DNA of 64,000 nt. It comes from Eledone cirrhosa (Eukaryota). The position numbers were made by a program, and so were the translations under genes. Of this stretch, positions 2,833 to 60,745 are shown piece by piece. Below the pieces are notes generated by a model. The model made no database searches and was not told where the DNA came from. It worked only from the letters and a program-made list of their open reading frames with translations. Location of the stretch: NCBI GenBank assembly GCA_964016885.1, contig OZ024760.1:13020001-13084000 (forward strand), given 5' to 3'. Each line of letters opens with the position of its first letter. The first letter of the stretch is position 1.

Positions 2833-3043
2833 TATAGGAAAAGAGTCAGGACCCCGACGGCAGAGCTCCGGACGTTTCGACAGCTAGATCCGAACGGATC
2901 AGTTCGGATCTAGCTGTCGAAACGGCCGGAGCTCTGCCGTCGGTGTCCTGAATCTTTTCATATTACCCACTCTACTACCTTAAGTGTCGAGTACTCGGTG
3001 TGTAATTGTCCACCTGGTATCTTACTACACTTTGTATCCACAC
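2833..3043 (+). mobile_element. Fold-back insert, family B
   Basis: Inverted arms around a loop at 2896-2901; GAAACGGC...GCCGTC; shared tail tattacccactctactacc...ccacctgg. Confidence 0.7.
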
Positions 3044-3328
3044 CTTCTCCGACTTGGATTTTCTGTCTTCAACTTCGTCGCACATTCCTCGATTTGTTGG
3101 CTTGATTTTCGTTATTTTTCTCTTTTCTTCCTTTTTTCCCGTTCTACTTTCCTTCCCTCCATCCTCCGTTTTCCCAATAACTTACCTAGTTATTGAACGC
3201 TCTGAGGGGGGGGGGTATATTGTCTTTAATCCGTTGAAATATCCGAGCCCCCCCCCCCCCCTCCAGTAGACAACTGATGAGGAAAATTCCCCGCCAGTTC
3301 TTACTTTCTTCTTATTCCTATGTTTAAG

Positions 3329-3370
<42 letters not shown>

Positions 3371-3643: not shown

Positions 3644-3696
3644 ATATATATATAAATTTCTACAAATTTCATACTTGACGACCCAATATATATATG

Positions 3697-3732
<36 letters not shown>

Positions 3733-3740
3733 CATATATA

Positions 3741-3832
3741 TATTGGGTCGTCAAGTATGAAATTTGTAGACATTTGTAGACATTTTTTTTTCTACAAGTT
3801 CCTACAAATTTCACACTTGACGACCCAAAATA
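3741..3832. mobile_element. Mariner-like MITE; single TIR at 3654-3686, decayed copy at 62237-62297
   Basis: TA-TTGGGTCGTCAAGTATGAAATTTGTAG ... CTACAAATTTCACACTTGACGACCCAA in TA context. Confidence 0.55.
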
Positions 3833-7870: not shown

Positions 7871-8272
<402 letters not shown>

Positions 8273-23176: not shown

Positions 23177-23526
23177 TAGAAAGTGAGTTTTGTTTTACAA
23201 ATTGAAAAATAACCGAGGTGTCCTACACGAGTGAAAGTATAAAGAAAAAGAGATGAAATCGAAAATGTAACTGGAGTCTTATTTTTTTTTTAAATATATA
23301 TATTTATTTGGTTCCTTTACCGGTTTCGCAGTTCTTCTGCTTTTCAAAAGGTGAGTTGAGATGGAGGGTCTGTGGTTTTTCTAAAAGCCACAGACCCTCC
23401 ATCTCAACTCACCTTTTGAAAAGCAGAAGAACTGCGAAACCGGTAAAGGAACCAAATAAATATATATATTTTTTTAAAAAATAAGACTCCAGTTGCATTT
23501 TCGATTTCATCTCTTTTTCTTTATAT
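23177..23526 (-). mobile_element. Fold-back insert with ~143-bp arms and an HHR-like motif in each arm
   Basis: Arms ~23238-23380 / 23384-23526; cctt-TTGAAAA-GCAG aagaa CTGC-GAAACCGGTA-aagg at 23412-23449; (TA)n on both sides. Confidence 0.7.
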
Positions 23527-23669
23527 ATATATATATATATATAAAGGCATAGCTGACCTCGGCAAGACTTGAACTCAGATCACAAAGGGCCGTAACTCTA
23601 TGTCGCAAAGCATGTTGTCCGACCCTCTACCGATACTGCCAGCCCACCTCCCTTAATGATAAAATAATA

Positions 23670-23980: not shown

Positions 23981-24059
23981 GAGGTGATGTAACATCATGA
24001 TAAATGCAGACCTCTCCCCTCTCTCTCTCTCTCTCTCCTTATATATATATATATATATA

Positions 24060-24180
24060 TAGAAAGGCTTTTACAGGACTAGTCCTGTAGAAGCCTTTCT
24101 ATATTAAATATGTATACTCTGCTTTGTATTGAGTACCTTACTTAATGTGGTTACCCCCGATTGAACCCGGGATAAACTTA
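24060..24180 (+). mobile_element. Short fold-back insert between (TA)n tracts
   Basis: tagaaaggcttttacaggactagtcctgtagaagcctttcta palindrome plus tail ...gtattgagtac, shared with 94-193 and ~960-1020(-). Confidence 0.5.
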
Positions 24181-24574
24181 TATATATATATATATATATA
24201 GGAGGGTGAGCTAACTTAAAGCGGAGGATCTTGTTAATGGTAGCCACAATGCCAAGTAGTAGTTTTAAAACCTAGCAAGGGATTCTTTTCAATACAGTGT
24301 AGAACAGGGATACATAACCTTACATGGAAGGAGGTCCACAATATTCATGAAAAAACAAAACAACAAAAAAAAAGCAATTAGTGTTCCACGAACATGAGCC
24401 AGCGAAACCCACTGCATTGGTCATTCCATTATTTAATTATCCATTTAACACTAACATTTTGCATACATATATATATATATATATAGTGGTAATGAATTAC
24501 TGACCTTTCCTGTTTATAATTATATATAGTGTATAGTGTATATATATAAGTATAAATAATATTATTATTATATA

Positions 24575-42189: not shown

Positions 42190-42476
42190 CTGGCCGTTTC
42201 GACAGCTACATCCGAACAGTTCAGACCTAGCTGTCGAAAGGGCAGGAGCTCAGCCGTCGGGGTCCTGACTCTTTTCCTATTACCCACTCTACTACCCTAA
42301 GTATTGAGTACTCTGGTGGGTTATGGTCCACCTGGGATCTTACCACACTTTCTTTATTATATATATATATATATAACGAAGGAAGTGTGGTAAGGAACCA
42401 GGTGGACCATAACACACCAGAGTACTCGATACTTTGGGTAGTAGAGTGGGTAATAGGAAAAGAGTCAGGACCCCCT
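42190..42476. mobile_element. Two family B copies tail-to-tail across a (TA)n tract
   Basis: 42190-42358 (+, with fold-back 5' end) and 42376-42476 (-). Confidence 0.7.
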
Positions 42477-47926: not shown

Positions 47927-48241
47927 TGAAAAGTAAATATGTTTTAGAAACAGCGAGCGAGTTTGGAAATAGAAATAGAATCTTTCGCCGTATTTTTGAC
48001 TACAGAAATTTTAACTTGATAGTAGGGTGTAGAAGCCTCTAAGAAATGGTAAAAGATGAGTATTGACGTTGATTAAAGCAATTCTAGCCTGATAGTGGGG
48101 TTTAAAGGCCTCTAAGAAATGGAAGATGAGTATTGACGTACATGTACGTCAATACTCATCTTTTTCCATTTCTTAGAGGGCTTTAAACCCCACTACCAGG
48201 CTAAAATTGTTTTAGTCAAAAATACGGCGAAAGATCTATTT
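47927..48241 (-). mobile_element. Fold-back insert, family D, with internal ~70-bp duplication
   Basis: Centre gacgtacatgtacgtc at ~48135-48150. Confidence 0.6.
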
Positions 48242-55911: not shown

Positions 55912-55962
<51 letters not shown>

Positions 55963-55964
<2 letters not shown>

Positions 55965-56163
55965 CGAAGGAAATGTGGTAAGGAACCAGGTGGACCATAA
56001 CGCACCAAAGTACTCAATACTTAGGGTAGTAGAGTGGGTAATAGGAACGAGTAGGACCCCGACGGCTGAGCTCAAGCCGTTTCGACGGCTAATTCTGGAC
56101 AATTCAGTCCAGAATTAGCCGTCGAAACGGCTTGAGCTCAGCCGTCGGGGTCCTACTCGTTCC

Positions 56164-56166
<3 letters not shown>
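55963..56166 (-). mobile_element. Fold-back insert, family B
   Basis: Perfect 60-bp arms 56041-56100/56107-56166; long arm continues to (TA)n at 55963. Confidence 0.75.
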
Positions 56167-56189
<23 letters not shown>

Positions 56190-56194
<5 letters not shown>

Positions 56195-58557: not shown

Positions 58558-59101
58558 TATTTCACATATAATTATGCAAACATACATCAACACACACACA
58601 CACACACACACAGAGAGACACACAGACAGAGCAATTTTCGGTAATATTATATTATGTTGGAGTCAGTGAAATTTACACGATTCCTTAATTAGTGTCATTA
58701 ATTGGCAGAATTACACCTAAATTAGTGGAGAACAAATCTACAACAGAAGACGACGACATTGAGGGGACATTATTAAAGGTTGGTGGTTTGTCATCAGTTG
58801 AGTACATTTATGGTGTGGTGGGAGAGGAGGGAGTGGTCTGTGTGGTGGGAGAGGAGGGAGTGGTCTGTGTGGTGGGAGAGGTGGGAGTGGTATGTGTGGT
58901 GGGAGAGGTGGGAGTGGTCTGTGCGGTGGGAGAGGTGGGGGAGGAGGAAGTGGTATGTGTGGTGGGAGAGGTGGGGGAGAAGGAAGTGGTCTGTGTGGTG
59001 GGAGAGGATGGAATTGTTAGTATATATGAGTATATATATATATATATACTCATATATACTAACAATTCCATCCTCTCCCACCACACAGACCACTCCGTCC
59101 T

Positions 59102-59137: not shown

Positions 59138-59187
59138 GAGCCGTCGAAACGGCTTGAGCTCTGCCGTCGGGGTCATACTTTTTCCTA
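59137..59187 (+). mobile_element. Family B short-arm fragment between (TA)n tracts
   Basis: agccgtcgaaacggcttgagctctgccgtcggggtc...ttcctat. Confidence 0.65.
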
Positions 59188-59202
59188 TATATATATATAT
59201 GT

Positions 59203-60311: not shown

Positions 60312-60510
60312 GGGGGAAGAAAGAGGGAGAAAGTGGGATTAAATGAGAGAGAGAATGAGAGAGAGAGTGAGTGAGTGAGAGAGAGAGAACTGTAACAGAG
60401 GTTGGCTTGTTTCAACTAAAACAATCAACAAGCGTTTCCTTCCACAATTACTATACTCACATATATATGTATATATATATACATATATACATTATACATA
60501 TATATATATA

Positions 60511-60694
60511 TAGGAACAAATATGACCCCGACGGCAGAGCTCAAGCCGTTTCGACGGCTATTTCTTGAGTCAAGAAATAGCCGTCGAAACGGCTTGAGCT
60601 CTGCCATCGGGGTCCTATTACCCACTCTACTACCCTAAGTATTGAGTACTTTGGTGCGTTATGGTCCATCTGGTTCCTTACCACAATTCCTTCG

Positions 60695-60696
<2 letters not shown>
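60511..60696 (+). mobile_element. Fold-back insert, family B
   Basis: Palindrome centred at 60569 (ttcttga-g-tcaagaa); (TA)n on both sides. Confidence 0.75.

Positions 60697-60745
<49 letters not shown>

Follow-up and report, generated by a model that had tools for sequence, protein, structure and literature searches.

Palindromic inserts of a Hydra-like Penelope retrotransposon in the Eledone cirrhosa genome are probably joined from two cDNAs of a single RNA

The locus discussed here, positions 55963..56166 of a 64,000-nucleotide stretch of Eledone cirrhosa contig OZ024760.1 (the window, that is the whole stretch of DNA analysed), raises the question of how a short piece of a retroelement comes to lie head to head with its own inverted copy, and of what fixes the point at which the two copies meet. 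A sequence-only reading of the window had recognized four palindromes of this kind (family B), had placed their centres 15-20 nt upstream of the GAAA of a half hammerhead ribozyme, and had proposed that the nascent cDNA snaps back on the stem II hairpin and self-primes its second strand, which would make the ribozyme fold the determinant of the breakpoint. All four palindromes are present, and the exact pattern of the two arms and centre occurs at 4,361 loci genome-wide, as opposed to none for the reversed control, in a host genome of 3.0 Gb that is rich in microsatellites. Read from the sequence of the four window copies, the centres lie 17-21 nt upstream of GAAA, so the proposed position stands with a slightly different range; the same copies contain the GAAAC-stem-GTC-GGGGTC motif and lack CTGANGA. 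For the 204-bp copy, which has many full-length relatives, 40 of 40 scored candidates matched at 93-100% identity, and a 31-mer of its tail has 23,746 exact matches genome-wide.

The copy at 55963..56166 comprises a tail and a perfect palindrome (56041-56166) of two 60-bp arms around a 6-nt centre. The tail-bearing arm (56041..56100, minus strand) corresponds to positions -60 to -1 of the pLTR, numbered from the pLTR end as site 0, and contains the 3' strand of stem II, GAAA, stem III with its palindromic GAGCTC loop, the GTC site and the 3' strand of stem I. It continues into the 80-nt tail (55963..56040, minus strand; +1 to ~+80), which in the parent opens the unique 5' sequence downstream of the 5' pLTR, and the far end of which, TTCGTTAT (within 55963..56040), abuts (TA)n and would represent the second RT start site. 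The inter-arm junction (56101..56106) reads on the plus strand AATTC followed by the A at -61; this A, part of an Inr-like TYAGTC, belongs to the tail-less arm, and AATTC has likely been copied from the arm. The tail-less arm (56107..56166, plus strand; -60 to -1) ends with the CCTAT of the pLTR end (site 0), presumably the first RT start site, and is followed by (TA)n. The flanking (TA)n target occupies 55913..55962 on the tail side, the start being approximate, and 56167..56191 on the tail-less side.

The other copies in the window vary this design. The fold-back insert of the older (B1) subfamily at 2834..3033 (plus strand) consists of a tail-less inverted arm, then the direct arm, with the tail from 2964; its palindrome (2838-2959) has 58-bp arms with a few mismatches, and the junction GGATCA lies at 2896-2901. 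The sequence that follows its tail (window 3051-3330) was considered as a part of this copy and rejected, being a separate high-copy repeat with 2,379 candidates at ~80% identity. The B1 fold-back at 42192..42360 (plus strand) is centred at ~42218 and has its tail from 42281; only ~26 nt are left of its left, inverted arm, which is short and mutated. The same (TA)n accommodates a second, tailed copy at 42372..42474 (minus strand), which begins at the predicted hammerhead cleavage site (GGGGTCC); this copy and a lone tail-less arm between (TA)n runs at 59139..59188 (plus strand) had both been overlooked. The fold-back at 60510..60697 (plus strand) has a 1-nt centre at 60569, 50-bp arms within the palindrome 60519-60619, a 10-nt deletion ahead of the tail, and the tail itself from 60619.

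Among copies anchored by position rather than ranked by score, a minority share a common upstream sequence that leads to a Penelope-like parent. Family B belongs to a Hydra-like Penelope retrotransposon with (TA)n as its insertion target, of which it represents the pLTR end and the 80-nt tail; the short insert has pLTR positions -61..0 on both arms and the 80-nt tail on one, between (TA)n runs. Two tandem copies, L250 and L251, have the same 80 nt between the 5' pLTR and the 5' UTR, with the ORF beyond; this order identifies CCTAT as the pLTR end (0) and the tail as the opening part of the unique 5' sequence. Long copies terminate at 0 (CCTAT) or at +80 and then pass into (TA)n, and their pLTRs show the order known from PLEs, tandem or inverted with an optional tail. 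The Penelope-like character of the element, suggested already by the sequence-only reading, is borne out by a parent ORF with RT motifs and a GIY-YIG-type region: the parent frames contain HSDKT, YRDD, CNCPDGSIC, the GIY-YIG-type region and CNLC..E..N..CKH, and natural frames in L248-L257 with YRDD and a C-terminal VIY..YIG region have the architecture of EN+ PLEs. For the parent frame, 774 homologues of ~700 aa were found, one from Argonauta among them, and all inspected copies of the parent ORF are broken. The parent frame gave no match in Pfam, in which a related family showed a weak GIY-YIG match (E 0.034), and nothing in the PDB sequence search.

Several features connect the parent with the Hydra clade, including the motifs HSDKTG (DKT), CNCPDGSIC (CxCx5C) and CNLCSEET..LLNKK..CKH (CxxC/CxH around E and N), as well as insertion into (TA)n. 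We classify it as Hydra-like rather than as a strict member of the clade because its pLTR has no canonical hammerhead. In those parts of PMC8557442 that were available to us, the clade shares with our element these motifs, a C-terminal GIY-YIG-type domain, (TA)n targeting, a hammerhead in the pLTR, an inverted 5'-truncated arm and a tail that is often confined to one end. By the same partial account (PMC8557442), the unit in the Hydra clade is shorter (under 3 kb, compared to ~3.6 kb here, with a long 3' UTR), the tail measures 30-40 nt instead of 80, and RWK stands where the DNA of L251 and L249 reads RWR; family B differs further in its non-canonical hammerhead core and in the predominance of short start-to-tail palindromes. 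The direct arm of a near full-length copy (L249 2251-6298) begins with the 3' tail, spans the ORF and the 5' tail and stops 13 nt into the 5' pLTR, where an inverted arm of 400 nt is attached. Another, distinct Hydra-like element, its ORF nearly whole in two overlapping frames, lies at L126 6283-8779 (minus strand; = L258), and it contains asparagine-rich stretches. These recall the N-rich inserts of rotifer Penelopes.

An assembly artefact is ruled out by the age-diverged arms (8 of 173 variants mirrored) and by independent contigs (4 runs, at most 2 samples, one study), which show the same two (AT)n-joined loose ends, at site 0 and at the tail end, and a far deeper -61..+80 segment. The summed depth of these contigs, which is not a copy number, is ~3 million for the short segment, ~0.2 million upstream and ~0.01 million for the ORF. 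This excess fits the view that the short inserts, which contain neither the TATA-like box nor the ORF, are likely dead-end by-products; they are likely not self-propagating. Readings of the inserts as tRNA-derived SINEs, after A-/B-box-like motifs on the opposite strand, or as HDV-like ribozymes were dropped once the parent had been found. As short non-coding derivatives of PLE pLTRs the inserts resemble the non-LTR retrozymes, but the latter, in the portion of 10.64898/2026.07.22.740005 accessible to us, are tandem units with a full hammerhead in each, whereas the inserts are head-to-head and carry half a hammerhead, with no tandem complete hammerheads in the short copies.

The 3' half of the pLTR end, with its GAAA, stem III, GTC and strand of stem I, had been recognized correctly as half of a type I hammerhead-like fold. 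The missing 5' half is found in the long un-inverted copies, in the form of ACCCC, the core, the 5' strand of stem II and a ~32-nt loop, after which the previously described part follows. The prediction that such copies would contain a CTGANGA core failed: it occurs in none of 67 distinct long-copy regions, a sample weighted toward the youngest subfamily, which instead read CTGAGAA (42), TTGAGAA (13), TTGACAA, TTGATAA, CTGAAAA and TTAAAAA (2 each), with four singletons. Thus GAAA and GUC are present, but the canonical type I core C3U4G5A6NG8A9 is not; 18 regions are of the class UUGANAA, in which U3 and A8 could pair, and 44 are CUGARAA, with a C3/A8 mismatch, while position 7 varies as it does in hammerheads. 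Natural U3-A8 hammerhead cores able to cleave are known, and U3/A8 could stand in for the C3-G8 pair. A canonical CTGANGA upstream of the 3' half was also sought genome-wide and rejected, as the 47 matches have mixed spacing and the 20 of them looked at include no intact parent, being junction inserts, inverted-arm overlaps or neighbouring repeats.

The three-way junction of stems I, II and III is retained in 21 copies, with 85.8% of cells paired over 32 pairs; two-sided changes occur in 4 pairs, 3 of them in stem II and due to the two B1 rows (old versus young subfamilies), and give modest covariation support, the rows of the alignment being related. The MFE folds of the region are not exceptional (z -0.4 to -1.6), Rfam returned no hammerhead for the long-copy pLTR, and among 150 of the 607 Rfam matches in the window there was no ribozyme, all of them being miRNA models, mostly on microsatellites. 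The 5' ends do not clearly cluster at the hammerhead cleavage site in the survey described below, in which 4 of 90 direct arms end at -17..-22. On the basis of these sequence features we regard the pLTR fold as a putative type I hammerhead-like structure with the variant core YTGANAA. Further CTGANGA..GAAA hammerhead-like motifs belong to several other repeat families in the window (1419, 22377, 13528 and 40581 on the minus strand, 59912, 48275).

The outer ends of the arms follow a strong pairing rule. Among 4,168 fold-backs of the commonest subfamily with arms spaced 82-112 nt, 4,093 (98%) have one outer end at site 0 and one at +80, and thereby one tail; 32 have none and 43 have two, compared to about 2,084 one-tail, 1,037 no-tail and 1,048 two-tail inserts expected if the sites were chosen independently. 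By eye, two-armed long copies are mostly one-tailed as well. A target-primer match of 3-4 nt (TAT/ATA) is found at both start sites. Furthermore, of 182 copies found, 170 were classed and 12 were not; the two arms match in subfamily in 169 of the 170, and in 43 of the 44 that lie outside the commonest class, the sole exception being L194, with arms of two subfamilies. The arms need not be equally long: of 62 short fold-backs, 22 have a tail-less arm longer by at least 5 nt and 16 a longer tail arm, and the remaining 24 have arms of similar length. The two arms barely overlap in 10 copies, where the one with the tail ends no more than 21 nt from site 0 and its partner extends to -40 or beyond; mirror cases of non-overlapping arms were seen in an unanchored 464-kb stretch around the window. 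A tail-less arm that extends further 5' counts against its synthesis by snap-back, because a second strand cannot outreach its template in the 5' direction.

The inner ends of the arms are constrained as well. For 90 copies anchored by their tails and picked in sequence along contig C1, the 5' end of the direct arm falls at -55..-66 in 52, at -67..-100 in 1, beyond -100 in 8 and nearer to the tail in 29, which corresponds to stop rates per base of 0.005 (0..-49), 0.068 (-55..-59), 0.113 (-60..-66) and 0.003 (-67..-140); an inverted arm was found in 68 of them, and 55 of these arms have their outer end at 0, 2 at +80 and 11 elsewhere. This wall, a 10-nt zone with two peaks, at which non-templated A runs are indistinguishable from the templated TTT, is located in the 3' part of loop II, in rough agreement with the breakpoints as originally placed, and in family B it also overlaps the 3' strand of the distal extension of stem II. 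It coincides with the Inr-like T(T/C)AGTC, retained across old and young subfamilies, the A of which lies 31 nt below a TATA-like box in three of four long copies and 29 nt in one, much as in the familiar TATA/Inr spacing; the box itself (TATTYAWA or TATTTATT) is a poor match. The base before the A at -61 is a non-templated G in 22 cases and A in 9 (p=0.03); it is C in 18 (partly templated) and T, the commonest, in 91, and in arms ending at -60 G precedes in just 9 of 84. Cap-derived G at cDNA ends is known from L1, and the excess at -61 hints, if weakly, at a copied cap. From the motifs and their spacing, the wall is likely the transcription start at the Inr-like motif, ~31 nt below the TATA-like box. 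In the limited portions of the literature at our disposal, Penelope is credited with an internal promoter (PMC2377424), and TATA and Inr-like motifs are noted in rotifer pLTRs (PMC3846280).

We propose, with a probability of about 0.7, that the inserts result from twin target-primed reverse transcription of one RNA, with run-off at the transcription start and subsequent end-joining. The enzyme would nick both strands of (TA)n, and a single RNP, possibly a dimer, would supply each broken end with one start site, so that one RNA would be copied from the fixed internal sites 0 and +80 with the help of the 3-4 nt TAT/ATA match. Transcription would start in the 5' pLTR, inside hammerhead loop II, at TYA(+1)GTC, with a minor start at -65, and the wall would be the capped 5' end of this transcript, to which both cDNAs would run. 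A promoter overlapping stem and loop II would yield transcripts without the 5' half of the ribozyme, and we infer that this overlap is why the breakpoints map to loop II. The cDNA ends would then be joined by host end-joining of a polymerase-theta-like kind, small local fold-backs being possible, and end-addition by the RT before joining would account for the A/T runs at the centres. Where the downstream cDNA failed to displace the upstream one, non-overlapping arms would be left, as in classic twin priming, and long as well as tandem copies could derive from templates extended upstream, by read-through or as circular RNA.

In the twin priming of L1, two nicks in the target prime one RNA, the first primer engaging the poly(A) end and the second an internal site of variable position, and the inverted 5' part is joined by microhomology. 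Unlike in L1, both sites in our element are fixed and internal, and the downstream cDNA would usually pass the upstream primer to produce a full palindrome. It is tempting to go further and consider an obligatory paired reaction of Penelope-like elements, in which one RNP with a single RNA directs one broken end to the pLTR-end site and its partner to the tail-end site, the two sites lying near the 5' end of that RNA; this stricter version is tentative, and we give it slightly less than an even chance. If true, the ordinary capped mRNA could give rise to start-to-tail palindromes only, and an upstream-extended or circular template would be needed for full-length or tandem copies; the inverted pLTR, the one-sided tail and the partial tandems would be explained together, and the palindrome centres would constitute a genome-wide fossil map of PLE transcription starts.

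The same two-site priming could also operate with a wall set by the ribozyme, through stalling of the RT or a cut in the RNA at the apex of the extended stem II. Positions -61..-66 do belong to the 3' strand of a distal stem of 7 bp, beside the apical loop, with pairing kept in older subfamilies, and ~10% of arms extend past the wall, which a leaky block would permit. However, by the time it came to the loop the RT would have passed, and unwound, this 3' strand, the G excess at -61 suits a cap rather than a cut, and the control families point elsewhere, which makes this alternative unlikely. Family E, represented in the window by a one-tailed fold-back at 23250-23540 with its centre at 23381, near a TATA(-30)/Inr-like site, has TATAAAA at -30 above CCA+1GATG. 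Seven of its 15 short arms stop within 1 nt of the A and 8 stop 3-15 nt downstream, none ending just upstream (+2 to +37); 5 further arms are long, including copy L068+, which ungapped scoring had misread. The minimal hammerhead-like motif of this family (TTGAAAA..GAAAC, with a U3/A8 core; ~23411-23450) lies ~40 nt downstream of the centre and is whole in both arms; no parent ORF of family E was found in the retrieved loci.

Family C (window 24057-24200, centre 24080), a short fold-back with a tail in (TA)n, has TATAAATA 31 nt above TCAGTT and parents with CTGATGA..GAAAC..GTC, and 3 of its 4 fold-backs are centred at or just above CTGATGA, with one near the cleavage site. The inversions of families C and E thus each lie ~31 nt below a TATA box and upstream of the hammerhead-like motif, so that the fold is unlikely to be the determinant of the breakpoint that the sequence-only reading took it for. 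In family D (window 7871-8190, centre 7986; one arm longer), parents of which have a canonical CTGAAGA hammerhead, the centre lies ~25 nt downstream of GAAA; the samples amount to 4 fold-backs for family C and 1 for family D. By eye, the fold-backs of families C, D and E are mostly one-tailed. We favour the transcription start over stem II because it explains families B, C and E, and stem II only one of them.

The junctions indicate that each palindrome centre formed separately. Of the centres in 91 copies 89 are distinct, a number raised by point mutations close to the centre, and a few junction types recur; ungapped arm scoring misread ~5 of the 91. Copies at the best 30 loci hardly vary in their arms, and almost every one has a centre of its own. 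The independence of the events had been suggested before, and it holds for the centres; the central hairpins quoted in its favour are subfamily differences of the arms and not junctions. The junctions contain overlaps of 0-2 nt (microhomology), A/T runs of up to ~18 nt or short copies of arm sequence, and end-joining with templated insertion is a polymerase-theta-like signature. Deletions inside the arms, between repeated GACGGCT motifs, were observed in L080, L084, L173 and L213.

The diversity of centres could also be attributed to pre-formed hairpin masters, that is to a short SINE- or MITE-like element whose centres are revised by hairpin cutting and repair. This scenario would be in keeping with the fixed 204-bp design, the very high copy number, the identity of 95-99% and the arms of one subfamily, and palindrome centres are unstable, as it requires. 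Yet trimming does not increase with arm divergence (rho 0.06, p 0.58, n=91), the design recurs in long copies whatever the length of their arms, long counterparts occur for most of the short-copy subfamilies, copies with non-overlapping arms exist, and the A/T runs at the centres resemble end-addition by the RT, all of which makes hairpin masters very improbable as a source of the inserts.

The least credible reading is that one cDNA or antisense RNA folds on stem II, or on its own end, and self-primes the second strand: it would account for breakpoints in loop II, for a tail always on one arm (as a single first strand predicts) and for junctions that often contain short arm-sequence copies, which a small fold-back could make, but the predicted junction of the loop and the 5' stem strand occurs 0 times, as opposed to 2,296 arms that read through stem II, in a search with an exact degenerate pattern that misses mutated cases. 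The nearest to such a junction is one of the 91 copies, L381. Moreover, the short inserts end ahead of the 5' strand of stem II, so the stem II hairpin cannot form in their cDNA, and the tail-less arm ends at site 0, which is also a normal 3' end of long direct copies, rather than at other TAT sites. Later deletion could produce the asymmetry of the arms, but this sits poorly with the flat trimming noted above. For stem II the self-primed model is therefore largely refuted, and the small local fold-backs that may occur at the junction step are what survives of it.

Much of the background to the twin-priming reading is already published, namely inverted 5' arms, one-sided tails, (TA)n targeting, two RT start sites and the hypothesis of self-priming, as far as the partial sources cited here go. 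Self-priming on an antisense template was proposed for inverted PLE junctions in the Discussion of PMC3846280 (Arkhipova 2013), and the parts of that paper available to us describe head-to-head inverted pLTRs, palindromic junctions, a tail on one arm and the TATA/Inr-like motifs; in contrast to its self-priming scheme, the asymmetric arms and the copies without arm overlap point to two primers and a sense RNA. The closest experimental parallel is PAc, the Poseidon element of Anolis, for which the accessible sections of PMC11167929 report that both strands are nicked and extended in vitro at AT-rich DNA, that two internal RT start sites bound the tail, that a dimer is predicted and that hammerhead cleavage is dispensable. 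The tail-bounding start sites and the AT-rich target are shared with our element; in those sections (PMC11167929) no homology between primer and RT start is reported, whereas both sites here show the TAT match, and they contain no assignment of one site per end, run-off at a pLTR start or joining of cDNAs. The genomic pattern adds to that work the use of the two sites one per end, on what is probably one RNA.

Neither the pairing rule nor a wall at the start site is mentioned in the available parts of PMC8557442, and the literature covered, which took in few subscription papers and main texts rather than supplements, yielded nothing on strict pairing or on centres placed at the start site. As far as these excerpts go, the origin of the inverted and tandem structures of PLEs is named as open (PMC8557442), and their integration is left among 'steps yet to be validated' (PMC11167929). 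Thousands of natural insertions now provide rules for it: each insertion has one tail (98%), its two arms probably stem from one RNA, and its centre lies at what is likely a fixed end of that RNA. These rules argue against self-priming and are testable in the existing in vitro PLE system. They also explain a very abundant class of palindromic repeats that may be confused with MITEs, SINEs or miRNA hairpins; if transcribed, the perfect hairpins would yield double-stranded RNA.

Other palindromes in the window belong to different sequences. Those at 3654-3775 and 58985-59094 are centred on (TA)n within flank that appears not to be part of any element, and are possibly inverted duplications at nicked TA tracts. 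Finally, a palindromic repeat with a TTGACGTACATGTACGTCAA core is located at window positions 47950-48240 (centre 48142), and it recurs nested beside a family B tandem copy at L250 2380-2670.
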